This document shows positions 4,161-27,409 of a stretch of DNA of 64,000 bases, one piece after another. Positions within the stretch are counted from its first letter, which is position 1; every line of letters begins with the position of its first letter. The stretch lies in contig NC_134025.1 in the NCBI RefSeq assembly GCF_964204645.1, positions 7,502,001-7,566,000 on the forward strand, in the 5' to 3' direction. The DNA is from Tubulanus polymorphus. Lineage: Eukaryota > Animalia > Nemertea. A program made the position numbers and the translations under genes. The notes under the pieces are model-generated. The model did no database searches and had not been told where the DNA came from. It saw only the letters and a program-made list of their open reading frames with translations.

Positions 4161-4900
4161 TTAATTTCTTCTTGCTCTTTTATTTCGTATAAATGTATAA
4201 TTTCCATCAAAGGCCCCTTCAACATCGCGGAGCAATTGCACAGGATCTTTTATGCGGATGTTTCGAGACCAACCAGGGCCGCGTGCAACAAGCTCTACAG
4301 CGGGGGCGGGTGGTACCCCCACTGGAGCGCCCGATGTTCCAGCCTGGGCGGGCATATCATTATTATTAGTTCTTTTTCTTTTTCTTGTAGGATGCACGCA
4401 CACAGGTGGTTGTGGTGGTGGTGGGGGCCCTGGTTGTGGAGCTCCAGGAGCCGCTGAGGACTCCTCATCACTGGACTCCTCAAAATTTGGTTGTGGTGGA
4501 GGAGCCGCACGTTTTGGTGTTCTTTTTTTGTTAGGCCGCCCCGAACCTTCCGTATAATTCACATCTTTCTTATTTTTGCGGGGCGACCTGCGCGGTGCAG
4601 GAGTCTGGACCTGTGGCGCCTCTGTCGGGGCAACCACGGCAGGGGCGACCTCCTGCTTCACGATAACAGGTGGCCCGACCTCCGTATCCGAAGATACGGT
4701 GACCGCAACCACCTGCACCGCAGAAGCAGGGTCCACCACCCGCGGGGGAGCCAACGGTGTTGGTGGATTTGGCTCCCCGTGCTTATGAGACGATAAACGC
4801 TCCACGCACCTTTTTAATCTCCTTTGTAGAAGGGAAGCCGCCTCATAAGCGTGGCCAGACTCATCTTTTCTGTTGACAACATCAATAACAATTGATTCAG
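4161..4900 (-). CDS. Probable terminal coding exon of an unknown Pro-rich, basic (nuclear-type) protein
   Basis: GC-rich open frame of about 245 codons from an acceptor (ttcatttcag near 4901). It contains PRRSPRKNKKDVNYTE, an acidic EESSDEE patch and RKRKR. Upstream exons could not be assembled cleanly. Confidence 0.5.
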
Positions 4901-6189
4901 CTGAAATGAAAAGAAAAACTATTAAGGATCACGAATATTACACATTAATACCACATAGACTTAACGTCTCCACGTCTCCAAATATGCAATTAATTGCCAG
5001 TTTATCTGATTCATTTCTAAATCAAGAGTTCGAAGGCAATTTCAGTTTTGTCATAGTATGTGTTGATACATCAATAATGGTGATGGTATTAGCTTTTGGA
5101 ATGCATAGGTAAAATTGGTTCATACCAATAACTGGAATTATGGTATAGTTCAGGTTTCACAACTACATAAATTTGTTTTGGAATAACTCATAATTTAACA
5201 CTAAAAGAGAAAGCTGATACAGATGTTAATATTATGATCACCTGCCCCAGCCTTACATGTAGATTGTTGCTGAAAAGCTTTCAAATGTATCTTCTTTATT
5301 CCTCATAATTATCAAATTTGATATTATCGTTAATTCATTTTCATAACATTTATAACACCCATTGCTATCAATACAGTTCGGGTATAACTGCAGATGCCTC
5401 TAGGGGTATAAACAAGTATAAACCAAATATCAAGAAAATCCATTATGCATTTCCTCAATCTGTTCTTAATATCTTTTAAGAAAATGCTCAGTAACAAATA
5501 ATCAAGACAAAATAATTACTTTAATTTGTTCATATTCTATTATCTTAACTATAAGGCGCGTTCACACGACGAAATTTAAACCGGCCTAAATTTTAAGTGT
5601 TCACACGGGCAAAAATACCGTTCCAAATTAGACCGGTCTAGTTTAGACCGGTCTAATTTGGCATGGTGTAAAAAAGCGAACCAGGTCCGGACCAAATTTT
5701 GGACCGGTCTAAATAAGTGTGTGTGGACAGAAACTGGTACCAGGTCCGGTGTCACAGTACAAGTGGTATCCCACTCATTACAGGCACCCCCTGATTGCGC
5801 ATGCGCGTGGGATTCCACTGCTTGTTTACCGCAAACGAGTAAAAGCCATCCCCGTACTAGAGGCATCCCCTTCTTTTGTACCAATTCAATTCAATTTATT
5901 GATGCTTTGATTCATCAAACAATTACCAATTATTTATTGTTTGTTTTTGAATAAAATCACTCGCAATGAAAAAAATACTACGTAACAATGCATTCAGTAA
6001 TGAATGCTTCGGCAGTTGCATTTTATAAGCATCAAAACCGTAAATTTAAAAAGTAATCAGACAATTCCGTTTTTTCAAATACTAAAATATATTTTATTTT
6101 CAATATTTAACGATATTTACATTTCCAGTAAAACATAAGAATAACGCATATAAACATGATAACATAAATGATAGTATCTACTAGTATCT

Positions 6190-9100
6190 ATAAAACATGA
6201 TATTAATGATATTTTGAATAAGATACATTCTGATTAACCATTACTTATGACTTAAAAGGAGGGGATGCATGTAATACCGTACCATCTGACAGTATTAGAG
6301 CTACCCCCTAACAGATTGATATTAAAACAACTATTGCAATTAATAACTTCAAAATCTATAATAAAACATGATATTAATGATATTTTGAATAAGATACATT
6401 CTGATTAACCATTACTTATGACTTAAAAGGAGGGGATGCATGTAATACCGTACCAGCTGACAGTATTTGAGCTACCCCCTAATAGATTGATATTAAAACA
6501 ACTATATTGCAATTAATAACTTCAAAATCTATAATAAAACATGATATTAATGATATTTTGAATAAGATACATTCTGATTAACCATTACTTATGACTTAAA
6601 AGGAGGGGATGCATGTAATACCGTACCATCTGACAGTATTAGAGCTACCCCCTAACAGATTGATATTAAAACAACTATTGCAATTAATAACTTCAAAATC
6701 TATAATAAAACATGATATTAATGATATTTTGAATAAGATACATTCTGATTAACCATTACTTATGACTTAAAAGGAGGGGATGCATGTAATACCGTACCAT
6801 CTGACAGTATTAGAGCTACCCCCTAACAGATTGATATTAAAACAACTATTGCAATTAATAACTTCAAAATCTATAATAAAACATGATATTAATGATATTT
6901 TGAATAAGATACATTCTGATTAACCATTACTTATGACTTAAAAGGAGGGGATGCATGTAATACCGTACCATCTGACAGTATTAGAGCTACCCCCTAACAG
7001 ATTGATATTAAAACAACTATTGCAATTAATAACTTCAAAATTTATAATAAAACATGATATTAATGATATTTTGAATAAGATACATTCTGATTAACCATTA
7101 CTTAAAAGGAGGGGATGCATGTAATACCGTACCATCTGACAGTATTAGAGCTACCCCCTAACAGATTGATATTAAAACAACTATTGCAATTAATAACTTC
7201 AAAATCTATAATAAAACATGATATTAATGATATTTTGAATAAGATACATTCTGATTAACCATTACTTATGACTTAAAAGGAGGGGATGCATGTAATACCG
7301 TACCATCTGACAGTATTAGAGCTACCCCCTAACAGATTGATATTAAAACAACTATTGCAATTAATAACTTCAAAATCTATAATAAAACATGATATTAATG
7401 ATATTTTGAATAAGATACATTCTGATTAACCATTACTTATGACTTAAAAGGAGGGGATGCATGTAATACCGTACCATCTGACAGTATTAGAGCTACCCCC
7501 TAACAGATTGATATTAAAACAACTATTGCAATTAATAACTTCAAAATCTATAATAAAACATGATATTAATGATATTTTGAATAAGATACATTCTGATTAA
7601 CCATTACTTAAAAGGAGGGGATGCATGTAATACCGTACCATCTGACAGTATTAGAGCTACCCCCTAACAGATTGATATTAAAACAACTATTGCAATTAAT
7701 AACTTCAAAATCTATAATAAAACATGATATTACTGATATTTTGAATAAGATACATTCTGATTAACCATTACTTATGACTTAAAAGGAGGGGATGCATGTA
7801 ATACCGTACCATCTGACAGTATTAGAGCTACCCCCTAACAGATTGATATTAAAACAACTATTGCAATTAATAACTTCAAAATCTATAATAAAACATGATA
7901 TTAATGATATTTTGAATAAGATACATTCTGATTAACCATTACTTTAAAGGAGGGGATGCATGTAATACCGTATCAGCTGACCGTATTAGAGCTACCCCCT
8001 AACAGATTGATATTAAAACAACTATTGCAATTAATAACTTCAAAATCTATAATAAAACGTGATATTAATGATATTTTGAATAAGATACATTCTGATTAAC
8101 CATTACTTATGACTTAAAAGGAGGGGATGCATGTAATACCGTACCATCTGACAGTATTATAGCTACCCCCTAATAGATTGATATTAAAACAACCAGGGCA
8201 ATTAATAACTTCATAATCCAAAATAAAACATGATATTAATGATATTTTGAATAAGATACATTGTGATTAACCATTACTTATGACTTAAAAGGAGGGGATG
8301 CATGTAATACCGTACCATCTGACAGTATTAGAGCTACCCCCTAACAGATTGATATTAAAACAACTATTGCAATTAATAACTTCAAAATCTATAATAAAAC
8401 ATGATATTAATGATATTTTGAATAAGATACATTCTGATTAACCATTACTTATGACTTAAAAGGAGGGGATGCATGTAATACCGTACCATCTGACAGTATT
8501 AGAGCTACCCCCTAACAGATTGATATTAAAACAACTATTGCAATTAATAACTTCAAAATCTATAATAAAACATGATATTAATGATATTTTGAATAAGATA
8601 CATTCTGATTAACCATTACTTATGACTTAAAAGGAGGGGATGCATGTAATACCGTACCATCTGACAGTATTAGAGCTACCCCCTAACAGATTGATATTAA
8701 AACAACTATTGCAATTAATTACTTCAAAATCTATAATAAAACATGATATTAATGATATTTTGAATAAGATACATTCTGATTAACCATTACTTAAAAGGAG
8801 GGGATGCATGTAATACCGTACCATCTGACAGTATTAGAGCTACCCCCTAACAGATTGATATTAAAACAACTATTGCAATTAATAACTTCAAAATCTATAA
8901 TAAAACATGATATTACTGATATTTTGAATAAGATACATTCTGATTAACCATTACTTATGACTTAAAAGGAGGGGATGCATGTAATACCGTACCATCTGAC
9001 AGTATTAGAGCTACCCCCTAACAGATTGATATTAAAACAACTATTGCAATTATTAACTTCAAAATCTATAATAAAACATGATATTAATGATATTTTGAAT

Positions 9101-11880
9101 AAGATACATTCTGATTAACCATTACTTATGACTTAAAAGGAGGGGATGCATGTAATACCGTACCATCTGACAGTATTAGAGCTACCCCCTAACAGATTGA
9201 TATTAAAACAACTATTGCAATTAATAACTTCAAAATCTATAATAAAACATGATATTAATGATATTTTGAATAAGATACATTCTGATTAACCATTACTTAT
9301 GACTTAAAAGGAGGGGATGCATGTAATACCGTACCAGCTGACAGTATTATAGCTACCCCCTAACAGATTGATATTAAAACAACTATTGCAATTAATAACT
9401 TCAAAATCTATAATAAAACATGATATTAATGATATTTTGAATAAGATACATTCTGATTAACCATTACTTATGACTTAAAAGGAGGGGATGCATGTAATAC
9501 CGTACCATCTGACAGTATTAGAGCTACCCCCTAACAGATTGATATTAAAACAACTATTGCAATTAATAACTTCAAAATCTATAATAAAACATGATATTAA
9601 TGATATTTTGAATAAGATACATTCTGATTAACCATTACTTATGACTTAAAAGGAGGGGATGCATGTAATACCGTACCATCTGACAGTATTAGAGCTACCC
9701 CCTAACAGATTGATATCAAAACAACTATTGCAATTAATAACTTCAAAATCTATAATAAAACATGATATTAATGATATTTTGAATAAGATACATTCTGATT
9801 AACCATTACTTTAAAGGAGGGGATGCATGTAATACCGTATCAGCTGACCGTATTAGAGCTACCCCCTAACAGATTGATATTAAAACAACTATTGCAATTA
9901 ATAACTTCAAAATCTATAATAAAACATGATATTAATGATATTTTGAATAAGATACATTCTGATTAACCATTACTTATGACTTAAAAGGAGGGGATGCATG
10001 TAATACCGTACCATCTGACAGTATTATAGCTACCCCCTAATAGATTGATATTAAAACAACCAGGGCAATTAATAACTTCAAAATCTATAATAAAACATGA
10101 TATTAATGATATTTTGAATAAGATACATTCTGATTAACCATTACTTATGACTTAAAAGGAGGGGATGCATGTAATACCGTACCATCTGACAGTATTAGAG
10201 CTACCCCCTAACAGATTGATATTAAAACAACTATTGCAATTAATAACTTCAAAATCTATAATAAAACATGATATTAATGATATTTTGAATAAGATACATT
10301 CTGATTAACCATTACTTATGACTTAAAAGGAGGGGATGCATGTAATACCGTACCATCTGACAGTATTAGAGCTACCCCCTAACAGATTGATATTAAAACA
10401 ACTATTGCAATTAATAACTTCAAAATCTATAATAAAACATGATATTAATGATATTTTGAATAAGATACATTCTGATTAACCATTACTTATGACTTAAAAG
10501 GAGGGGATGCATGTAATACCGTACCATCTGACAGTATTAGAGCTACCCCCTAACAGATTGATATTAAAACAACTATTGCAATTAATAACTTCAAAATCTA
10601 TAATAAAACATGATATTAATGATATTTTGAATAAGATACATTCTGATTAACCATTACTTTAAAGGAGGGGATGCATGTAATACCGTATCAGCTGACCGTA
10701 TTAGAGCTACCCCCTAACAGATTGATATTAAAACAACTATTGCAATTAATAACTTCAAAATCTATAATAAAACATGATATTAATGATATTTTGAATAAGA
10801 TACATTCTGATTAACCATTACTTATGACTTAAAAGGAGGGGATGCATGTAATACCGTACCATCTGACAGTATTATAGCTACCCCCTAATAGATTGATATT
10901 GAAACAACCAGGGCAATTAATAACTTCATAATCCAAAATAAAACATGATATTAATGATATTTTGAATAAGATACATTGTGATTAACCATTACTTATGACT
11001 TAAAAGGAGGGGATGCATGTAATACCGTACCATCTGACAGTATTAGAGCTACCCCCTAACAGATTGATATTAAAACAACTATTGCAATTAATAACTTCAA
11101 AATCTATAATAAAACATGATATTAATGATATTTTGAATAAGATACATTCTGATTAACCATTACTTATGACTTAAAAGGAGGGGATGCATGTAATACCGTA
11201 CCATCTGACAGTATTAGAGCTACCCCCTAACAGATTGATATTAAAACAACTATTGCAATTAATTACTTCAAAATCTATAATAAAACATGATATTAATGAT
11301 ATTTTGAATAAGATACATTCTGATTAACCATTACTTAAAAGGAGGGGATGCATGTAATACCGTACCATCTGACAGTATTAGAGCTACCCCCTAACAGATT
11401 GATATTAAAACAACTATTGCAATTAATAACTTCAAAATCTATAATAAAACATGATATTAATGATATTTTGAATAAGATACATTCTGATTAACCATTTCTT
11501 TAAAGGAGGGGATGCATGTAATACCGTACCATCTGACAGTATTAGAGCTACCCCCTAACAGATTGATATTAAAACAACTATTGCAATTAATAACTTCAAA
11601 ATCTATAATAAAACATGATATTACTGATATTTTGAATAAGATACATTCTGATTAACCATTACTTATGACTTAAAAGGAGGGGATGCATGTAATACCGTAC
11701 CATCTGACAGTATTAGAGCTACCCCCTAATAGATTGATATTAAAACAACCAGGGCAATTAATAACTTCAAAATCCAAAATAAAACATGATATTTTGAATA
11801 AAATACATTCTGATTAACCATTACTCATGACTTTAAAGGGATGTTATACTGTACCAGCTGACAGTTTTAGAGGTATCGCA
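6190..11880 (+). repeat. Tandem satellite array, 171-bp monomer (164-173 bp variants), about 33 copies
   Basis: cttaaaaggaggggatgcatg recurs at 6251, 6422, 6595, 6766 and onward. Copies are near-identical, with a recurring 7-bp deletion variant. Confidence 0.97.
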
Positions 11881-12072
11881 TTATAGAATGACAGATAAAA
11901 TGATATCAAAACATAAAGGACATTTTTTACTGTCAAACTACCTGACCTGACGATAGTATAGCTCAAAATGATATCACAACTAATTATTAGAATTCATAAC
12001 TGCAAAATAAAAAAATCAACTATGATAATCTTTGGATTCTTACGAAGATACATTTTGTAAAATGACGAAGCA

Positions 12073-15000
12073 TTAGTACGTTGGTTTTAAGCCCTTTTGC
12101 AAAATTTCAATACATTCTTCATCAGATATAACAACATCTGATGGCATAAAGATATTTCCATCAAATTCAGGGTATTTTCTCAAAATACAAGTGGCGTTAG
12201 GGTGGAAATAACCAACTCTCCAGGAATCCCTCTTGCTGGCAGATTTTTTATCAAAGAATTGATAATTTCCATATGAAGCCACAACCAGTCTCGATTTAAG
12301 ATCCGTAGGGCAGCCTTGGCATCGCTTTATTCTCGTCGATCTTTCCTTCATGTAAAATGGCGCTGAAAAATAATACATTATTGATATGTTAAAGCGCTAA
12401 AATGAGACGTGTTACAGCTTTCATGTCGTTATTTTCAAATTACCTATATCTTTTTCTTGTTTACTAGTTCTTTCCTTTTTCGGTAACTCCATCTTTCCGC
12501 CTAGAAAAGTCAATGTAATTGTCAAAAATAACCGATACAGATGTAATAACTAAATTCAAATCTGTGAAAAGTATACCTGTTTCTTTTTTCTTCTTTTTTA
12601 CAGCTTTTCGCATTTTCGTACCTACAAATTGTACACATATATGTATATACAAGACCATACCTCTCCTACTTAATTCGTTATATACGAACATAATTATGTT
12701 CGTGGTCACAAATGCGCTACATCAAATTAGTAATCTGATTGAATAGAATTAAGAAATGCAGAATTAACAGACCTGCAGTTTTGTTGTCACATGCAGTGGT
12801 ATTCTCGAACTCAAAATCACTCGTTTTTCTTCGTTTTGGTGGAACTATGTCTGGTAATTCATTATCTGTAATATAGAAAAACAGGGTACTTTAGGACGAC
12901 TCTATTTCATAGTACTAACTTTCTACTACAGTAGGCCTATCATAATGATTCCTTGGCGAATGTTTGTCTCCATCTGTAATCCATCTTGCAATAAATTATG
13001 GACATTCCCGGTATCCTGACATATTGAACTTACTAGTAACGAACTCTGCATCATGAAGCTCATTTTCATTTTGGACGAGGGACACATCAGGAAAGTTACC
13101 TGAAGAAAAGTTTCTATTCAATTTATCTTCATTCTCCGTTGGTCTTTTACTCTTACTTTAAAATTAGGATTGTGCGCGCGACATGTGTAGTGAGTAGATA
13201 CCTCGGAGCTAGAACCAACTTAATTATTTCTCCTTAGTCTTAACTAAGTACACTGTGAAAAAATTATCATTGATTTTCTTTCGTAAGATTTTTCATCAAA
13301 TTATCCTAAGACTTTAATAACTCCTATAATAATATAATGTTATAAATGGAATCATTCTGGGTAAACCAGGTCGACCAAATGAATCATGCCAGCCAACCGA
13401 TTGGAGTCTTCCCAGTCTTCCTCAAAGTTTGATACATTGTTATGCAACAGCAATTCATTATAACTCACCATTTCCTATAGGATTTCCTTGATTTTCTTGT
13501 TCGCCTGAATAAAAATGAATGCAAATATATTCATTAAAGAATTAATATAATAGATAGAAAAGATATTCGCGAGACTGATCTTTGCTTACTGTCAATAGCT
13601 TTGCAGTACTTGCAAAAAAACATCACACTGCTTGCAATGTTGCTGCCTATCAGGGGTATTTGTCTGTTGTAGCAAGCTAGGTGAAACCACCTAAAGCATC
13701 TATCACAGCCAATCTGATTGAAAATGATAAATCAAATAAACTGGGAACATTTCTAAACATTCACCACGAATAGAAGAAAAATTGTATAATATCAATTAGT
13801 GTCAACGGAAACTTACCCAATCGGTAACATGAATTGAGCTTGCATGACAACATAGACAGCACATCTTTGAAGGATCTGTAGCTATTGAATGAAAATACAC
13901 TGTAATTTCAATTTCAGGTAAAGGAATGTGTATATCTTTATTGCGTACTGTTCACCTTTCTTACCTATCGATCCCATGAGCCACATGGCTATCTCAAATC
14001 GGTACTGATCGATCGCAGAACTAGTATTGTCAAACTCAAGGGTTTCATTTGCCAAAATACTCTCTGCAAACTACAGAATATCGCAGAATATAATCAATTA
14101 TAGTGTGAGGCCTATTTGATTAACAAACACGGTCTCCTGCAAGTTATTTAGATACAGGGTATACCATAATTAAACTTGTTAATATCAATAATATCCCTGT
14201 ATATAAAGTCCTTTCATATACCTTGAGAACAAAGACTCCACATGATGATGAATCTAGCTGCTTTGAGTGTTTGACGGTCCTCAACCTCCAGTTTCCCATT
14301 GACTTGACACTCTTGATGGCGATTGTGTTTTTAAAAACGGTTATCAATTCCTCTTTTAGTTCGCCCAATGAATTGAGATACAAGATCTCTTTCGTATTTG
14401 TCTGTATGATCTGCAGATATAATGAATTTTAAAGCAATTATAAGTTCTATGTTCAGTTCTATGTGATTTGATTAAGTACCATGAGTGTCCAGTGACCACC
14501 ATGTAACAATGGGCATAGCCATACTTCTTTTTCTGCCAATGATCTCTGAAATATAAGAATATCTTTTTAAAAACTGTCACATGAAATGACATTAGATAAA
14601 TCCTTGGATAATACTTCTAACGTTACTTCCTAAGAATTCCAGCTTATTCTATTTCATGGTTACACAAACTTACCAATGCACCCGGCAATCGGCGTCTATC
14701 ACCAAATATCATTGGCGACAAAATATGGCTACTCTGTACTCCAATCGTCTAAAACCATAATGTTTATTTCAATGAATTCAAGAAATTTTCAATAAGCAGT
14801 ACCGCGGTAATTTGTTTAATTGGTACATACGAATGTACACTTCAAACTTTCCATACTTACTTTCGATTCCGTCGAATACTTTAACGTTAAATGATTGAGC
14901 CCTTGAAAAACAGCCTGAAAAAGGAATACGTTTAATCAACCCAGAAAAAATCAAAAAATTGTAAGAGCTTTATACTTACTTCATCATTGAGCTGTTCATT

Positions 15001-18000
15001 TTTTTTTAATGAAAATATTGTCGCATCCGACAACGGTACTCCTCTTACGGTAAACAATTTTCCAAAGTAGTAGTCCTTCGGACCATATTCCCAGGTCGTA
15101 TAAACCACTGAAAGACAGAAATCATACATTCATGATAATTATCATCGCCATTGACTGTGGGCACAATGTGAGAAACTGTTTTCTTACGAGTATCATCTGA
15201 AGGTACTGCTGCTTCTTTTGCGATCGGTACAGACATTTCTATCTCTTCCGTATCACTTATATTTATTATTTCTGTAAATAGACAGGGAATTTATTAAAAG
15301 ATGGGAAAAATGTTTAGAATTTTGTCTATTATACCAACGATATTCTATGTACACACCAGCGTTGTTGTCCACGATGTCGTCACCAGCCTGGACTTCAGTG
15401 TCATCAATTAAACCATCTAGAACAGAATTAATTGACGATGACATTCAACATAATTATTATTTACAAACTTCCCAAATTAATTCATTCATTCTTAAACTTC
15501 TGTTTTATTCTGTACACACCAGCGTTGTTGTCCACGATGTCGTCACCAGCCTGGACTTCAGTGTCATCAATTAAACCATCTAGAACAGAATTAATTGACG
15601 ATGACATTCAACATAATCATTATTTACAAACTTTAGAATTAATTAATTCATTCTTAAACTTTTGTTTTATTCTGTACACACCAGCGTTGTTGTCCACGAT
15701 ATCGGCACCAGCCTGGACTTCAGTGTCATCAATTAAACCATCTAGAACAGAATTAATTGACGATGACATTCAACATAATCATTATTTACAAACTTTAGAA
15801 TTAATTAATTCATTCTTAAACTTTTGTTTTATTCTGTACACACCAGCGTTGTTGTCCACGATGTCGTCACCAGCCTGGACTTCAGTGTCATCAATTAAAC
15901 CATCTAGAACAGAATATAATTGACGATGACATTCAACATAATCATTATTTACAAACTTTAGAATTAATTAATTCATTCTTAAACTTTTGTTTTATTCTGT
16001 ACACACCAGCGTTGTTGTCCACGATGTCGTCACCAGCCTGGACTTCAGTGTCATCAATTAAACCATCTAGAACAGAATTAATTGACGATGACATTCAACA
16101 TAATCATTATTTACAAACTTTAGAATTAATTAATTCATTCTTAAACTTTTGTTTTATTCTGTACACACCAGCGTTGTTGTCCACGATATCGGCACCAGCC
16201 TGGACTTCAGTGTCATCAATTAAACCATCTAGAACAGAATTAATTGACGATGACATTCAACATAATCATTATTTACAAACTTTAGAATTAATTAATTCAT
16301 TCTTAAACTTTTGTTTTATTCTGTACACACCAGCGTTGTTGTCCACGATATCGGCACCAGCCTGGACTTCAGTGTCATCAATTAAACCATCTAGAACAGA
16401 ATTAATTGACGATGACATTCTACATAATCATTATTTACAAACTTTAGAATTAATTAATTCATTCTTAAACTTTTGTTTTATTCTGTACACACCAGCGTTG
16501 TTGTCCACGATGTCGTCACCAGCCTGGACTTCAGTGTCATCAATTAAACCATCTAGAACAGAATTAATTGACGATGACATTCAACATAATCATTATTTAC
16601 AAACTTTAGAATTAATTAATTCATTCTTAAACTTTTGTTTTATTCTGTACACACCAGCGTTGTTGTCCACGATATCGGCACCAGCCTGGACTTCAGTGTC
16701 ATCAATTAAACCATCTAGAACAGAATTAATTGACGATGACATTCAACATAATCATTATTTACAAACTTTAGAATTAATTAATTCATTCTTAAACTTTTGT
16801 TTTATTCTGTACACACCAGCGTTGTTGTCCACGATGTCGTCACCAGCCTGGACTTCAGTGTCATCAATTAAACCATCTAGAACAGAATATAATTGACGAA
16901 GACATTCAACATAATTATTATTTACAAACTTCCAAAATTGATTCATTATGAACTATTGGTTTATTCTGTACATACCAGAGATGTTACTGTCGACTTCCGT
17001 GTCAGCATTTGCCTTCAAACCTTCTAAAACAAAAGATTTTAATTACTTTTCATTATCAGTACATGTCTTCACGAGTATGATGTCTTTAATTCATTAAGAT
17101 ACTCAACTCTTCTTTAGAAGGTTTCTTGGAATATACTCAGTGATTAAATCTCTGGTGGGCATCAAGTGTTTCAAAGACACTTTTCTGCCCAGAGGTCTAC
17201 CATCTTTCAATAATATCGCTGATTTGCCAACAATCTCTTCAATAGTCAACGTCTCCTCGTGGAAGTTAGATTCCAAGAAACCACCTTTCCTCCCAATATT
17301 TTCTGCTTTGTACCTAATATATATACCATATATTCAATGCAACACGTAATAATACATACATAAAACTATAGGCATGGTATGGAACTAATACCTGTAGACC
17401 TTGTCTCCAACTTTGAGGCTCTTCGCTCCTTTATTTTGCCGCCTATCGTAATTAATTTTTTGACGAGTTTGGGCCTTTTCAATATTTTGCCTCGCGGTCT
17501 GTTCAATTTTCTCATGAATGGATAAAATATTGGCTTCAGTATTTCCGTTTTCTTCAACTCCCTGGATATATAAGGTAAATATAGGAAAATGAGACATATT
17601 TTAACAAAATTCAGCATCTTTATACAAAAATTCGAACTGAAAAAATTGATTTTACCGAGTATTCTTCAGTAACCTCTGGTACCTCAATTCCATTCCTGGC
17701 AACTCTTCCATACATAACATAAAACGGAGACATTTTCGTGCTGCTGTGTGGCTTCGTATTAATGGAGTAAGTGGCACTGTTTAAGTAATCGTCCCAATCA
17801 TTTTTTTTAGAATTAACTAAATGCTTTAATCTCCTAAAATACAATAATGTAAGAATGACATAATACATGAAAATAGATCTGTCTGATGTTATATTTCCGT
17901 ATTTTCACGTACTGTTTTAGAGTTTGATTTGTCCGTTCATCGAGTCCATTGGTTTGTGGGTGGTAGGCAGCGGTGACACAATGTTTCGTACCCATCATTT

Positions 18001-21000
18001 TCAATAACTCATCATTCAACTAAAATGAATCAGGATCATTTCACTTATAGTTGTATAGTACTAGTTATACTTATATTGTTATATTGTTATATGATTAAAG
18101 CTGTATAGTTAATTATATAATCATAGTTATATTTATAGTTATAACTATAGTTGTAGTTAAAGATGCTTACTTGAATTTTAGCTAATTTATTAATAATGAA
18201 TAAAATATGAACATTTTCACAAAAATACATAAAACATAAGGTGATCGAAGCTTTAAGATCCCGTAAGAGAATGACAAAACCAATTGTGGGTTAACAAAAA
18301 CCAAAGCTGAGAAATACAACACCAACGTTACTATGATTAAAACACAACCTTAATGTTAAAAAGTTTGACAGTACCTACATACCTTCCTCTGAATTCTGCA
18401 CTTAAAAGAAGACAATATGACATGATTTTCAATGATAACAAGTTCTCTGTGATTTATCAAGAGTCAAACCTACTTGATTATTAAATTCCCTTCCTTGATC
18501 AGACAGGATTCTCTTTGGGGCACCAAATCGATAGTACATCTGTAGGATACACTTTGCAACTTCAGTTGCCGACTTTTGTTTTATCGGGTATGCTTCTACC
18601 CATTTTGACACGTAATCAGTAGCCGTAAATATATACCGGTTTCCATTTTTTGTCATCGGTGCTTCGGTTAGATCAACGCCTACCATTTCCCAGACTTCAT
18701 TAACCTAGAAATAAAAAACAATTAACAATATGGTCTATCGTAATAATAACCTCATAATTAACTTAACTAAATTTCGAAATACAAATCATAAGCTCACAAT
18801 AAAAACGTAGATGGGATAATACTGAGCGCGGCGAAAGCACATGTCATATGTATATAAGGATTGGGGACGAATTTCACTACCTTTTCAACTGTACATATTC
18901 AAATGATAGTAGGGAATTATATCTAGACAGCAGATTTTATATCAACCTTATGAAACATAAGTTATTAATGCAAACCAAAGAGAAAGCCGAACTTAGTAAA
19001 TTGTGAATTTTTATTGGTAAAATTATGAGATTTTTCACTTTTCCTTAGAAATAGCTCGCATGTAAACCTATATTTAATTAGGTATCTACCTACTGTACGT
19101 CGCATATGATGTATCTTTTTATGTACTGTATATATCACTCAAATTGCCTTTGTATTAAGACCAAGAGTTTGTCAAATAAAGTAAAGTAAAGTAAAGTATG
19201 TGAAATAATCTTATACTTGATGTTGGTGAGGGTACATGTAAATTTTATAGAAGAAAAGAGACATTTACCTTAATAGGTTGCAACTCAGAATCGCCCTTCA
19301 GCAATCTCCCAGTTTTGATATTACAGCTTTCACATCCCTTGATCTATTGATTTATTGATGATAAGAAATAAAAAGGCACCTTTAATTGGGTAATAATACA
19401 TGCTCTAATTATTCTATGTTATGTTTAATAATTGTACTGTTACGTAGAATATTCAAACAAATAATATACGGATCAGTTGATCACAATATCCGTGATAAGA
19501 CGATGAGTAAAAATCCCACAATATATGACTGAATCTAAAAGGGTTATTTGATATATGAACTTACCCAGTCTCGCAAGTCATTAGTCATTGAAGGCCAAAA
19601 GTACTTCTCTGCGATCACGGAGAAAGTCTTTTCTAATTTGAAATGGCCTCCTTCAGGACTCGAATGATATGATGTAAAAATCCTTTTTACTTCATCCAAG
19701 GAGCTTACAACTTGGGCATGCTTGCCATTCCGACGAATTCTAAATAGTTGAGTTCCTGCCAAAAACGTAAATTGAAGCAAGATTTATTTTTCAAAACTTT
19801 TATTGATTTTATTTTACCAGAATGAGTTCAAATAGAATAACAAGTTCAATCATTTATATAATATATATCTATCATCAGATTTATGATTATTCGATATTAG
19901 CTGCTTTACTAACTATTGATCGGGACTTGAGATATTTTTCTTAGATATTGAGATTTGATCTTTAATCTATCGATGCAATATCATTATTCATAATTTTGGT
20001 TATGTTCGGTGAAATGGTGGCGCGTAATCTCAAACTCAAGCGGATACAGATCAGTCGTAAGGAAAGATATTCAAACAATTTAAACGCCGGCCCGAACGGC
20101 AAACAACCCTTTTAACCTCTGTGAAAATTGGAAATATAGCTTTTAGAGATACTTCAAAGTTAATAGATATCGCGCGGTTAAAATATGCGGTCCTTGGTTT
20201 CACATCGTCACTGTTCTCTGTTGCGTTCAAAACATCCAAGAATCACCAGCAGATATCTGCATTTCATTTCCTTTAAAATGGTGTTTGAGTTCATCGAGCA
20301 AGGGACTGTAGAACTATATGATATTTAATCTAAACATATGTTTTAAAAAAAGAGTTGAAATTATCGCAAAAATGTGGACCTCGAGGGACCGCCATAAAAT
20401 GGCGCCTATTTATCAAATTTATCAACTTTTAGCATCAAATGCTAAATTTCATGAATCACCCTTAAAGTCGGATAGAATATAGTTCATCAGAATGTATTCA
20501 CTCTAAAATAATCGTTTTAAATCTAAGATTTGGAAGTAATTCTTTTAAATGTTCTAATAGATAGCTCAACTGCTAAATAGAACGGTATAACATGCACATC
20601 CTGTTAAGTTAAATATAATAGTCAATGAGAATACATCTACATAAAAACGTGAATAAGATGATGTCTTATTTTGGAATTATCCAAAAGTGATTTATCTTTG
20701 AATTTTTAATTTGGTTTAGTATCTTTCTATTACGGAACAGCTCTATTAATGCTTTCTCTGGTGCGATGTTAATCAGAATATATCTTCTAAGATACCAAAA
20801 ACCTGTTTGATTTATCAAGTAATACCCTTCTAATTACTGGTACATGGAAACCGCTGTTAAACAACTGTTGTGTTGCGTCGCCTCGTATCAACGTACGTGA
20901 ACATATCATGCCTATCCTAATTGATGGGTACTGCCACGTTCGGGGCCATTAATTTTTACTGCTGACAAAAAGATTCTGACTGAGACACCTGTTCAAGCAC

Positions 21001-24000
21001 GTTGCTATGCATACTAGTCGTATGATTCTATCTACGGTGATTAGAGGCCACAAAATCATAAATTAAAAGTTTTTCACTATCGCAGTTCAGTATAATAGTA
21101 GTCTACTTTAATTTAAATAATAATTGTCCTCCAGTATCTTAATATCATTTTATCAGGGGATAGCTCTAACACTGTCAGCTGGTACGGTATAACATGGATC
21201 CCCTCCTTTAAAGTCATAAGTAATGGTTAATCAGAATGTATCTTATTAAAAATATCATTAATATCATGTTTTATTTTAGATTTTGAAGTTATTAATTGCC
21301 CTGGTTGTTTTAATATCAATCTATTAGGGGGTAGCTCTAATACTGTCAGCTGGTACGGTATAACATGCATCCCCCTTTAAAGTAATAAGTGATGGTTAAT
21401 CACAATGTATCTTATTCAAAATATCAGTAATATCATGTTTTATTTTGGATTATGAAGTTATTAATTGCCCTGGTTGTTTTAATATCAATCTGTTAGGGGG
21501 TAGCTCTAATACTGTCAGATGGTACGGTATAACATGCATCCCCCTTTTAAGTCATAAGTAATGGTTAATCAGAATGTATCTTATTCAAAATATCATTAAT
21601 ATCATGTTTTATTATAGATTTTGAAGTTATTAATTGCCCTGGTTGTTTTAATATCAATCTATTAGGGGGTAGCTCTAATACTGTCAGCTAGTACGGTATA
21701 ACATGCATCCCCCTTTAAAGTAATACGTAATGGTTAATCACAATGTATCTTATTCAAAATATCATTAATATCATGTTTTATTTTGGATTATGAAGTTATT
21801 AATTGCCCTGGTTGTTTTAATATCAATCTATTAGGGGGTAGCTATAATACTGTCAGATGGTACGGTATTACATGCATCCCCTCCTTTTAAGTCATAAGTA
21901 ATGGTTAATCAGAATGTATCTTATTCAAAATATCATTAATATCATGTTTTATTATAGATTTTGAAGTTATTAATTGCAATAGTTGTTTTAATATCAATCT
22001 GTTAGGGGGTAGCTCTAATACGGTCAGCTGATACGGTATTACATGCATCCCCTCCTTTAAAGTAATGGTTAATCAGAATGTATCTTATTCAAAATATCAT
22101 TAATATCATGTTTTATTATAGATTTTGAAGTTATTAATTGCAATAGTTGTTTTAATATCAATCTGTTAGGGGGTAGCTCTAATACTGTCAGATGGTACGG
22201 TATTACATGCATCCCCTCCTTTTAAGTCATAAGTAATGGTTAATCAGAATGTATCTTATTCAAAATATCATTAATATCATGTTTTATTATAGATTTTGAA
22301 GTTATTAATTGCAATAGTTGTTTTAATATCAATCTGTTAGGGGGTAGCTCTAATACTGTCAGATGGTACGGTATTACATGCATCCCCTCCTTTTAAGTCA
22401 TAAGTAATGGTTAATCAGAATGTATCTTATTCAAAATATCTATAATATCATGTTTTATTATAGATTTTGAAGTTATTAATTGCAATAGTTGTTTTAATAT
22501 CAATCTATTAGGGGGTAGCTCTAATACTGCCAGCTGGTACGGTATTACATGCATCCCCTCCTTTTAAGTCATAAGTAATGGTTAATCAGAATGTATCTTA
22601 TTCAAAATATCATTAATATCATGTTTTATTATAGATTTTGAAGTTATTAATTGCAATAGTTGTTTTAATATCAATCTGTTAGGGGGTAGCTCTAATACTG
22701 TCAGATGGTACGGTATTACATGCATCCCCTCCTTTTAAGTCATAAGTAATGGTTAATCAGAATGTATCTTATTCAAAATATCTATAATATCATGTTTTAT
22801 TATAGATTTTGAAGTTATTAATTGCCCTGGTTGTTTTAATATCAATCTATTAGGGGGTAGCTCTAATACTGTCAGCTAGTACGGTATAACATGCATCCCC
22901 CTTTAAAGTAATACGTAATGGTTAATCACAATGTATCTTATTCAAAATATCATAAATATCATGTTTTATTTTGGATTATGAAGTTATTAATTGCCCTGGT
23001 TGTTTTAATATCAATCTATTAGGGGGTAGCTCTAATACTGTCAGCTGGTACGGTATAACATGCATCCCCTCCTTTTAAGTCATAAGTAACGGTTAATCAG
23101 AATGTATTTTATTTAAAATATCATTAATATCATGTTTTATTTTGGATTTTGAAGTTATTAATTGCCCTGGATGTCTTAAATATCAATCTATTAGCTCTTA
23201 TAATGTCATCGATGTTTTAAAATCATTTTATTTGGAGATAGCTCTAATACTACATCTAGTATAAAATGCACCCCTTACGGTCAAATATGATAGCTGTATC
23301 TAATAATTAAATATTGAATAATATGAAGTTTTCAATTTTCATCTATGTTTTGATATCAAACTATGAGGGAATAGCTCTAATACTGCCATATCTGGTGCCA
23401 TGCTAGATATTACCATTAATCAGAATCTGATTGATGTCGTGTATCATTTTCTTATTTTTAAGTAATTAATTGTCATGATGTTTTGATATCATTCTATTAG
23501 AATAGTACGTCAAATATGCCGCCTCTAAGATTGGCCTTAGTTAAATTAGCCTCAAATACCTGAAAAAAAGCTGTTTGATTTATCAGGGAATACCCCTCAT
23601 AATTGCTGGTGCGTAATTGGCATCCATAGAAACCGCAGTTAAACAACTGTTGTGATGCGTCGCCTCGTTTCAACGCACGTCAACGCATCATAAATTGCTA
23701 CAGTCTTCCTTGGGTACTGCCACTTCCAGGGCCGTAGTACCATTAATTTTTACTCCTGACAAGAAGATACTGATAGAAACACCTGTTCAAGCACGTTGCT
23801 ATGCACAATGAAAATCTAAAGATTTTTACGATCTCCAAAGTTCAGGACCTACGTTTTCATCGAGTTGTGAAAAACGTTGAAACTATTTTTTTTCTAACCA
23901 ATATCCTTTACAAAATACACACAAATTTTCAAATGATTGGTTGAAACATTTTGTTCATTTCTTTTCATCTAAATGACTTATTGAAAACTTTTTTAAAAGA

Positions 24001-24567
24001 AATAACTCATTCAGCTTTATTTGGTCGATCCAGAGTCATGACAAATCTTTTTCCCAACAATTTTAGCTTTGATAATAGCAATAAAACCAAAACGCTTCAG
24101 AATTAAAATGATTGGTCGAACAAATTTTCTCACATTACTTAGTAAATTTTTCTTTAAAGAAATAGTCTTGTTGGATAGATCCTGAATGCCGAAAAATAAT
24201 TTTTATTTGGGCCCAAACAGTTTTCCCAACAATTTTAGTTCGGTAACAAAAATCGCACATTCGGTCACAAACGCTTCAGATTTTCAAATGATTTGTTGGA
24301 ATTTTTCACTCACATATCTATCTAAATTTAATTTAAGTCAAGATATCTTTTTCCTAACTGTATTTATCTATCTCAAAAATAATTTTAAAACACTTTAATG
24401 AATTTTCAAATATTATTTTGAAAAACGAAAATATTTCATTTCCTACCTTGCATGGTAAAATGCTTCGCTTTCTTTCTCAGAGTACACTTCATCGCCTTTG
24501 TAAAATCGGCTGGATATTGGCCATTCAACAGGTAATTAGAAAGGTTCGTTGCTTCAGCAGGATCCAT
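12073..24567 (-). CDS. Ginger1 transposase, multi-exon: HHCC Zn finger + DDE integrase + acidic repeat + Ulp1/C48 protease + PHD + C-terminal Zn finger
   Basis: Exon 1 24567-24447 MDPAEATNLSNYLLNGQYPADFTKAMKCTLRKKAKHF. 19755-19565 and 19343-19269 give YHSSPEGGH...YFWPSM...CESC. 18704-18474 has VGVDL...ILSDQGREF. 18019-17913 has YHPQTNGLDERTN. Further exons at 17833-17656, 17561-17392 and 17313-17108, then ten 60-nt exons. Ulp1 motifs LNDE / GGHWTLM / YLNSL / QLDSSSCGVFVL at about 15108-14222. PHD CLCC..IGCDRCFRWFHLAC..CKYC at 13876-13591. Last exon 12362-12073. GT-AG phases stay compatible throughout. Confidence 0.9.
15345..16975 (-). repeat. Ten tandem 162-163-bp exon+intron units, each with a 60-nt phase-1/1 exon encoding DGLIDDTEVQAG(D/A)DIVDNNA
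   Basis: Unit landmarks at 15351, 15514, 15676, 15838, 16001, 16163, 16325, 16487, 16649 and 16811. The minus strand reads ttctag|ATGGTTTAATT...AACGCTG|gtgtgt. Confidence 0.88.
21150..23200 (-). repeat. Second array of the same 171-bp satellite in reverse orientation, about 12 copies, inside transposase intron 1
   Basis: The reverse complement of the left-array monomer (catgcatcccctccttttaagtcataagtaatgg) is repeated. Degenerate copies extend to about 20560 and about 23500. Confidence 0.96.
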
Positions 24568-27409
24568 TTTTATTGATGATAGTTAAATAAATCGATAAGT
24601 ATATTATCGGAAACAAAAAGCACGGCGCGATTGATTACGGTAAATGCTAGCTATGCTGTCAGAGGATGCCGTTTATACGGCGAAAAGCTGTCTGCTATTG
24701 ACGCATGCGCAGTGCATATTGACGCATGCGCAGTCTGCTATGGGATGCCTGTTGTACGGGGATGCTAGTTGTACTGTGACACCGGTCTAAATCGTGATTC
24801 TGTATCTCAGCGGTAGATGTCGCGACCTCTGCGGTAGAGTGTGAGTCCAGTTTATAAAGTTTTAAATGCTTTTATTACCGTTTATGTACTTATTTTTAAG
24901 TACTGTTTTTCCTCCCTATTCTATAGAAATGTTTGGAGCTTATTCGTATTCGTATATCACGATCATCATCCGTTTTACTGCCGTGCTTTGAACCGTGTTT
25001 AAATGATACTTAGCGTTTCAGCGTGATAGAATAAGTCGAATTCGCAAAAATGTCTAAACCTGACAAAGGATCAAATTGGTCAAATGAAGAATGTCTTGCT
25101 CTACTTCGAATCTGGAAGCAAGACTTCATCCAGTCGCAATTAATTATAGCAGATGGCGACATCTTGTGGGCCCGGTGACAAGCGATTTTATCACCGCGTG
25201 TCAAAACACCGTGTGAATGCTCACCAAAATTTCGTTGGTCTAACTAGTTGTCGTGTGAACGCGACTATAGACAGTACATGGTAAATCATATTCAATTTTC
25301 ACATATTTCAAAGTTTTTTTACATTTTTTTCATGGTAGAAAAACAATGCAAACAATTTGATTCAAATTTCGTACATATTTTTATATATATTTTGTATTAT
25401 GAAAATTGTATTATATTTTTGATAAATTTTCAATTTATATGAACTACATCATAAATAATGGAGCTTGCCTGCCCGGGCAAACCTCCGTTTCCGGAGGTGA
25501 AAAATTGAAACCGAATGACAAATAGTCAGAACTACAGTCCGGAAACGATTGACCGCGGAATTGAGCACGGTTGCTGTAGTTCGCACCTAGTTTCAAGATA
25601 GCCGACACTGAAATATGTAACGACCGAACTATAGTGCCTTTGGTTATAAGCTCCGACCTTTAATCGACTAACAATAAAAACCAGGTTCGACCTGGTTAGA
25701 CAGATTGCCACTCAATTCACTGTTGATTTATTCACATTCAAAACAACCAAGATCTGATACCATGAGCCCTGGATTGATGAAGGATCAGCGACTGGGTCAC
25801 TTCACCTCAATGAAGGCCTATTTCACATAAATTCACAACTTATTCAAATGAGCCACTTACCCCTTGAATATCGAATCCTTCAGACACAGCTTATTTAAGA
25901 ATTCACAGGTTTTTGAGTTGTGGCGATAAACGCAAAAATTTCACACAGACGCAGCACAGGTAAAACTTTATCTCCCAAGACTACATCAAGAGGATATGGT
26001 ACTAGTGGTTCTGATGAAGTTCTGGAGTTGTATTTAACAATGTTCAGCTCATATTTGACATAATCTAAGACAATATTCTGACAAAACGCTACATTTGAAT
26101 ACATTTTAATGTTTGAATACATCTTAGTTTATGTGTATTCCTCTGAAACGGATTTACACCATTTACAAAAAGCGATTTGTCTTGAAATCAAACACCAAAA
26201 TTCATTTTCACTTAAACCCGATTTTAGCTATTCACATAAAATGCTTATCATATGAAAAAAGTACAAAATAAGTTTAGGCCTCATTGAGACCTCACCAAAT
26301 CTTCAAATACTGGGCAGTCATTAGTTTCAACTTTGCAATTGAGAGCAATAAAAAATATACCGACACCAACGCGAATCGAAAAATTGCTTATATTTTCATA
26401 ATTTTCAGTTCTCCTTATGGGAGTATCGATACTGAAAAATACTAATTCAACTTGATAAGATGCTGTTCAATTCAAGTAAAATAATATCACAGCATGATAA
26501 TTCATTTACCATTTTGATTTACATGTATAAGAATTGTACAATGGTGATACAAATAAACAATTCAAGATGGAGGGACGCATCAAGAAACCTGTTAAGGTTT
26601 ATGAAAGTAGTTGATGATATTTACATCAATACAAGCAGCCTATCTGCTTCTCCGCTGTTTAATGATAAGACTTTACAAGGACCACCTACACAGCACTCTC
26701 AAGAGTTCAAATCTAGAAAACGGCTCTATTACTTTCTAGCCCTTGGCCCATAGTATCTACATACCAAGTTTCGTCAACATCGGACAATAATTGTAGGACT
26801 AGTAGCGATTTAAAGATTTTACAAGCGCCACCCGTACAGTGCCCCCTAGAGATCAAATTGGGAAAATGGGTCTATAACAAGATCAGAAAAGAACTGTAGC
26901 ACTAGTAGCAAATTGAAGCAAAAGTTGACGGATGGACGACGATGGATAATCCCCCTAACCCATCAAAACCCACAAAAACTCATTGGAAAGCGGGTTTCAT
27001 TGAATATCCCGCGGCATTTTTGCGGCATAAATACCCACAAGAAAGCCATTTTGTTTCTGATCAAAAAATGTTTTTGGGATGATGAAATAAAGGGTATCAT
27101 AAATGTATAACAAAAATTCAAGACGAGAATAAATATGCAAAATGTACTTATTTTGACCGAGAAACAACAAAGGCTGCCAGTCAGTTATCTTAATTCTGAT
27201 AAGGGCCAATACTTAAGATTCGTTTATTGAATATTGAATTTCAACCAAAAAAATTATTAAGACAATTCTGATTTCTCAATGTATCATTTTATTTAAAATT
27301 TTTTTTTAATTTTATCATTTTATTGAAGTATTCACAAACCGAATTCAGAAACCGAACAATCAACAATCAGCAGTTTGTAGAATAACCAGACAGCTACAGT
27401 TAACAATAA

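Follow-up and report, generated by a model that had tools for sequence, protein, structure and literature searches.

The 64,000-nt window analyzed here (contig NC_134025.1 of the nemertean Tubulanus polymorphus, positions 7,502,001 to 7,566,000) contains what is apparently an intact and complete Ginger1-type transposon, as judged from its sequence, and within the predicted transposase gene of this element, a tandem array of ten near-identical exon-intron units separates the integrase from the Ulp1-like protease. The ten-unit array was confirmed as real, and its exons are predicted. Our main reading, to which we give a probability of roughly 0.6, is that the array is spliced in as a 200-residue, acidic and likely disordered spacer that is tolerated by the linker rather than needed. 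Table 1 lists the features with their positions in the window.

Table 1. Features of the transposon and of its predicted gene (window coordinates).
Feature	Position	Strand	Remarks
Target-site duplication, left	5746..5749		CCGG
Ginger1-type DNA transposon, 19,032 bp	5750..24781	-	Terminal inverted repeats with a perfect match over 13 bp and an imperfect one over about 120 bp
171-bp array, 33.4 copies	6190..11839		Non-coding; lies within the element, past the 3' end of the gene
Last predicted exon	12073..12362	-	Unnamed Cys/His-containing domain and stop codon
Second linker	12444..13504	-	Five small phase 1-1 exons (36, 66, 93, 45 and 57 nt), all in P0022
PHD finger exons	13590..13881	-	Pfam; also in P0022
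Ulp1/C48-like protease exons	13965..15107	-	His774, Asn791, Gln829, Cys835; Pfam E 2.5e-4 in one exon
84-nt phase 1-1 exon after the array	15188..15271	-	Its first residues are the most SIM-like core in the model
Whole array	15357..16876	-	Ten 60-nt phase 1-1 exon candidates and nine introns of 102/103 nt; aa 443-642 of the model
Exon candidates, units 1-5	16876-16817, 16714-16655, 16552-16493, 16390-16331, 16228-16169	-	60 nt each
Exon candidates, units 6-10	16066-16007, 15903-15844, 15741-15682, 15579-15520, 15416-15357	-	60 nt each
48-nt phase 1-1 exon	16976..17023	-	Diverged relative of the unit exon
Atypical phase-1 donor	17099..17110	-	AGA/GTTGAGTAT; intron 17107-17024
Predicted exons 2-8	17108..19755	-	H2C2 zinc finger, DDE core (D140, D198, E234), SH3-like C-terminal part; Pfam, model, Atlas lead
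171-bp family array, 12.1 copies	21139..23194		Inverted; inside predicted intron 1
Predicted exon 1	24447..24567	-	Start codon, YPYY-type motif, phase-1 donor; 40 aa
Target-site duplication, right	24782..24785		CCGG

The earlier note on this DNA described the 162-bp repeat as an exon plus its intron, with intact ag/gt sites and phase 1 at both ends, in ten copies, and both the splice sites and the phases in the gene model agree with that description. A pyrimidine tract followed by TAG precedes the exon and GTGTGT follows it in every unit, the spacing between units is 162 (seven times) or 163 (twice), and TRF returned 10.1 copies with 97% matches. The two variants that had been seen in irregular order differ at two linked sites, a D/A codon and one silent change, and run D A D A A D D A D D along the array. 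When the unit was base-shuffled, a comparable in-frame exon appeared in 3 of 2,000 shuffles. GC content was 48% in the unit exon and 24% in its intron, a contrast that parallels the one between the remaining exons (40%) and introns (29%) of the gene. The array donors score like the other donors of the gene (3.25 with a position weight matrix built from this gene), and their duplex with U1 (-6.1 kcal/mol) is stronger than that of 8 of the 22 others. In the gene model, retention of a unit intron introduces a stop codon and skipping of all ten units keeps the reading frame, which bears out the frame neutrality claimed before. The 48-nt exon upstream proved to be a diverged relative, as had been proposed: its alignment score with the unit exon was reached by 2 of 2,000 shuffles, and its intron is a clear homologue of the unit intron. 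The 84-nt exon showed no demonstrable kinship with the unit exon (670 of 2,000 shuffles reached the score). A 358-aa open reading frame that crosses the array on the plus strand was rejected as a by-product of the repeat. None of 12 candidate public proteins contained the unit in what was a weak search, and the units differ at only about 1 position in 60 nt, too few for a test of selection.

Tandem joints between units were also found in sequencing reads. In run X5, which comes from a different sample and study, 32, 4 and 1 reads jump back by 162, 163 and 161 bases, respectively, which rules out an assembly artefact as the source of the array, and contigs of X2 and X3 likewise carry unit-to-unit joints; since these contigs run through introns, both runs behave as DNA. 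Unit peak-depth ratios were 6.0 to 7.4, and read depth in X5 corresponds to a minimum of 7.8 unit-equivalents, compared with 9.4 for the window, two values that the bias of the method does not allow to be separated. Because reads are clipped at the one-unit reference, this count is biased low, and we claim no variation in unit number. The element itself is of low copy number by X1 depth, with 81 to 118 at its right end and 71 to 156 on the flank contigs, whose repeats prevent an exact figure. Run X7, which may be RNA, gave no contigs over 23420-27400, a result that carries no weight as to expression.

The gene was modelled by hand as 34 exons running from 24567 to 12073 on the minus strand, with 3,405 nt coding for 1,134 aa, a single stop codon at the end and GT-AG borders at all introns. 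Exon 1 is 47% identical to the N-terminus of a relative (P0078). At the other end, the last 319 aa agree at 316 of 319 positions with a RefSeq model, P0022 (Tubulanus polymorphus LOC141908960), which starts downstream of the array and spans only the 3' third of the gene. As another annotator's prediction, P0022 supports nine of the predicted junctions, and the near-match would imply a second copy or an allele of the element gene. In the protease, His, the oxyanion Gln and Cys are present and Asn occupies the position of the catalytic Asp, a replacement also seen in 20 of 64 motif-matched relatives. The best match of a profile built from 24 related protease domains was SENP2/SENP1 (E 3e-23). 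The C-terminal domain is about 34% identical to amphioxus proteins P0034, P0053 and P0176, and it had no match in Pfam or the Atlas. Half of the exons (17 of 34) are phase 1-1, and every one of them lies within the two linkers; the gene thus builds its linkers from such exons, with the array as the extreme case.

The limits of the element could be fixed at 19,032 bp by three observations: the CCGG pair, the end sequences, which read TGTCACAGTACAA next to CCGG on both sides and give TGTCA termini, and 111 X5 reads that connect the left flank straight to 24782. This empty site belongs to further copies of a host repeat that is present in high copy number. Several features of the element are marks of Ginger1, namely, a 4-bp target-site duplication of the CCGG/CCGT type, TGTNR ends, terminal inverted repeats within the 40- to 270-bp range, the YPYY motif in exon 1, an H2C2 finger, the DDE triad, and C-terminal Ulp1 and PHD domains with no reverse transcriptase in the stretches scanned. 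Single exons gave Pfam matches to H2C2 (PF17921), rve (PF00665), C48 (PF02902) and PHD (PF00628). The GPY/F region aligns with relatives that carry GPY or GPF and gave weak SH3-like leads in the Atlas, with the tripeptide itself replaced. A protein search with an integrase exon returned 21 matches, all of them Gypsy-type polyproteins or unnamed records. An LTR retrotransposon or provirus was rejected on the grounds of the terminal inverted repeats, the 4-bp CCGG, the introns and the lack of any reverse transcriptase or RNase H family across the 17 stretches scanned with Pfam.

Other repeats were seen in the element and its surroundings. The satellite-like 171-bp unit, inverted on the two sides of the main coding region, makes up 40% of the element length and gave no useful alignment with the 162-bp unit. 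Its array in intron 1 is flanked by a diverged direct repeat of ~330 bp (20705-21035 and 23465-23830), and a decayed three-copy repeat of ~175 bp lies at 23924-24423. Also in predicted intron 1, a high-copy repeat at 20020-20408 reached an X5 depth of about 550 against 17 and showed opposite-strand joints; further repeated pieces appeared as X5 depth peaks at 19383-19636 and 26612-27010. The Ginger element is nested in a high-copy non-autonomous repeat (5548-5749 and 24786-25270; X5 depth about 115 to 295). This repeat, which we take to be Harbinger-like, has inverted ends that are short and, near 25040, an interrupted Myb/SANT-like frame. To the left of the element, a GC-rich and proline-rich open frame of 255 aa (4161-4928, minus strand) had no Pfam match, and the region 35500-57800 presumably holds host gene fragments which by eye have the look of F-box/WD40, RING, BRCT-repeat and xanthine dehydrogenase genes.

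In order to place the linker within its family, we used P0022 as a query, which returned 245 proteins, and surveyed the domains of the best 149 others listed. At least five relatives among these 149 matches combine an integrase with Ulp1, and two cluster members, P0173 and P0176, bring the set to seven. Four of the seven have tandem repeats in the integrase-Ulp1 linker, with 3 to 60 copies, a recurrence that was absent from the earlier note: the amphioxus protein P0176 (XP_078701370.1) carries an acidic repeat of 60 × 11 aa, the tilapia proteins P0173 and P0023 carry 6.6 × 9 and 4.6 × 9 aa, and the rainbowfish protein P0033 carries a neutral 3 × 9 aa. The two cichlid copies belong to one family and differ in their unit counts. 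Linkers of the relatives, five of them measured by motif, range from 124 to 716 aa with net charges of -96 (amphioxus) to +3 (fish linkers, -6 to +3), and the Tubulanus linker has 279 aa and a net charge of -72. By alignment, the linkers of P0119 and P0143 are 3 and 47 aa long, lengths which may come from mis-modelled genes. The 11-aa amphioxus unit is unrelated to the Tubulanus unit, with shuffles reaching the score 91% of the time. All of these relatives are automated gene models, and their repeats were seen at the level of the predicted protein. Taken together, the predicted proteins suggest that what is conserved in the linker repeats is their position and not their sequence, length or charge. 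Repeats before the protease were also seen in a set of Ulp1-PHD transposon-like proteins, P0176, P0125, P0074 and P0087 (60 × 11, 4 × 40, 4 × 48 and 31 × 8 aa).

The integrase is joined to the array through an atypical donor at 17107, which the earlier note did not mention, and this site bears on whether the array is translated at all. No other phase-1 GT follows the last strand of the integrase, the score of the site with the matrix from this gene is -9.9 (below 98% of GT sites), and an in-frame TGA at 17105-17103 lies directly beyond it, so that leaving the donor unused yields a 427-aa protein ending just past the integrase. The array could then be a by-product in the transcript, either through this stop or because the units are skipped together, and both the survival of the frame without any unit and the restriction of P0022 to the 3' third of the gene agree with that. 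Nevertheless, position 17107 fits the 5' end of U1 in a register shifted by +1, at -6.0 kcal/mol. This pairing equals that of the array donors and is stronger than that of three GTs close by that compete with it (-4.7 to -5.3 kcal/mol), and just 1 of 445 non-donor GTs fits the shifted register as well. Shifted and bulged U1 registers are described at human 5' splice sites in the accessible text of PMC4856993, and shifted ones also in that of PMC9311317. Furthermore, the 84-nt intron implied by this donor resembles its neighbours, all exons downstream keep the frame and the catalytic residues, and the relatives are single fusion proteins. We therefore consider an untranslated array unlikely and donor 17107 probably real, perhaps leaky, as a prediction.

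Granting translation, the composition of the spacer might still have been selected. The earlier note had described an acidic linker built by symmetric exons between the integrase and Ulp1 domains, and the predicted model bears this out, with 66 D/E and no K/R in the 200 aa of the array. A charge-hydropathy test called the array disordered and, by the same test, the integrase borderline. The integrase part has a net charge of +16 and the array one of -66, taking the predicted net charge of the protein from +20 without the array to -46 with it, a flip that may be non-neutral for a DNA-binding protein. By mimicking DNA, or as an arm comparable to a histone chaperone, the tract could damp the basic integrase or assist it in engaging nucleosomes, in proportion to the number of units; the acidic amphioxus linker and the PHD finger downstream are consistent with this, but the near-neutral linkers of the fish relatives argue against it, and we rate such a role as very unlikely. 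The same low standing goes to the proposal that the repeats are a selected multivalent reader of SUMO or poly-SUMO that feeds the protease and helps the element to escape SUMO-dependent silencing. The position of strongly acidic repeats next to a protease with SENP2/SENP1 as its best profile match speaks in its favor, as does the presence of a consensus core with acidic neighbours at the head of the following exon. According to the available part of PMC8616421, the consensus of a SUMO-interacting motif (SIM) is hhXh or hXhh (h being I, V or L) with acidic flanks and rare exceptions, and non-consensus motifs such as that of Ssa1 exist. The array has acidic flanks in abundance. However, LIDD and DIVD, which had been likened to SIMs, contain two aliphatic residues each and no such core, and none of the nine cores of the model falls within aa 443-642. 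The one with the most acidic neighbours, IINI followed by SDTEE, begins at aa 644, at the start of the 84-nt exon, so that the SIM prediction proposed in the earlier note located its best core just after the repeat. Nor was there any core in the repeats of P0176, P0033, P0125 and P0074, and the single one in P0173/P0023 lacks an adjoining acidic patch; the sequence and charge of the repeats are not conserved among relatives. Lastly, the amphioxus relative has a UBA domain, which hints at ubiquitin as much as at SUMO as the protease substrate, and transposon proteases of a different family are reported to cut ubiquitin in the accessible text of PMC9741609.

Under our preferred reading of a tolerated spacer, a single 48-nt phase-1 exon and its intron would have been duplicated and would have diverged to the 60-nt form, and slippage or unequal exchange would then, presumably recently, have amplified this form. 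Units 1 and 7 share an acceptor-side variant, which points to the duplication of a larger block, and the order of variants is the same in units 1-3 as in units 7-9. The two 171-bp arrays and the older ~175-bp repeat indicate that such amplification is common in this element. Given the phase symmetry, any number of units would survive without a frameshift, and the likely sole job of the spacer, free in both length and sequence, would be to keep the protease-PHD module attached to the transposase. A wider scheme can be drawn in which splicing is self-regulated, with the shifted donor choosing between the 427-aa integrase and the full protein, unit inclusion tuning both charge (+20 to -46) and protease reach, and the Ginger1 linker serving throughout the family as a hot spot of independent repeat expansion that sets this reach; we think it quite improbable. 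Most likely, the array plays a passive part.

The element roughly triples the size of described Ginger1 elements with respect to the range listed in PMC2836005, and the number of introns would rise from 4 to a predicted 33. The array would also represent a tandem exon duplication caught very early within a transposon, and the relatives indicate a repeat-expanding linker across the Ginger1 kin. What Ulp1-like proteases do in transposons could be tested with the short and long forms that this element provides naturally. No account of repeats or exon arrays in the linkers of Ginger elements turned up in the accessible portion of the literature, PMC12863088 included (Repbase, subscription papers and the original GIN-transposon report were outside this scope).

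Symmetric, tandemly duplicated exons that code for disorder are a pattern described in host genes (accessible text of PMC3632108), as are tandem duplicated symmetric exons and linkers (PMC2812944, likewise in part). The Tubulanus array has in common with them the phase symmetry, the low-complexity spacer between globular domains and the preserved frame; the difference is that it lies within an apparently intact transposase gene. Similarly, donor 17107 fits U1 one base downstream, like the human sites of shifted register (PMC4856993 and PMC9311317, as far as their available text goes), but it is a prediction and belongs to an invertebrate transposon. Closer at hand, P0176, P0173, P0023 and P0033 share with the Tubulanus protein the layout of integrase, tandem-repeat linker, Ulp1 and PHD-like domain, and P0176 has the C-terminal domain as well, together with an Asn in its protease motif. 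The units of these four proteins, 9 to 11 aa long, are unrelated to the Tubulanus one and neutral to mildly acidic. With the Ginger1 elements of Bao, Kapitonov and Jurka (2010; accessible text of PMC2836005), the element shares the CCGG duplication, TGTNR ends, a YPYY-type motif, H2C2, DDE, C-terminal Ulp1 and PHD, and spliceosomal introns, and Ginger1-9_HM (Ulp1 and PHD) has the nearest known layout. The members listed there measure 2.6 to 7 kb, with 0 to 4 introns and proteins of about 500 to 800 aa, in contrast to 19 kb, 33 predicted introns and 1,134 aa in Tubulanus; the replaced GPY/F, the 171-bp arrays, the linker of exon-intron repeats and the extra C-terminal domain set its element further apart from these members.
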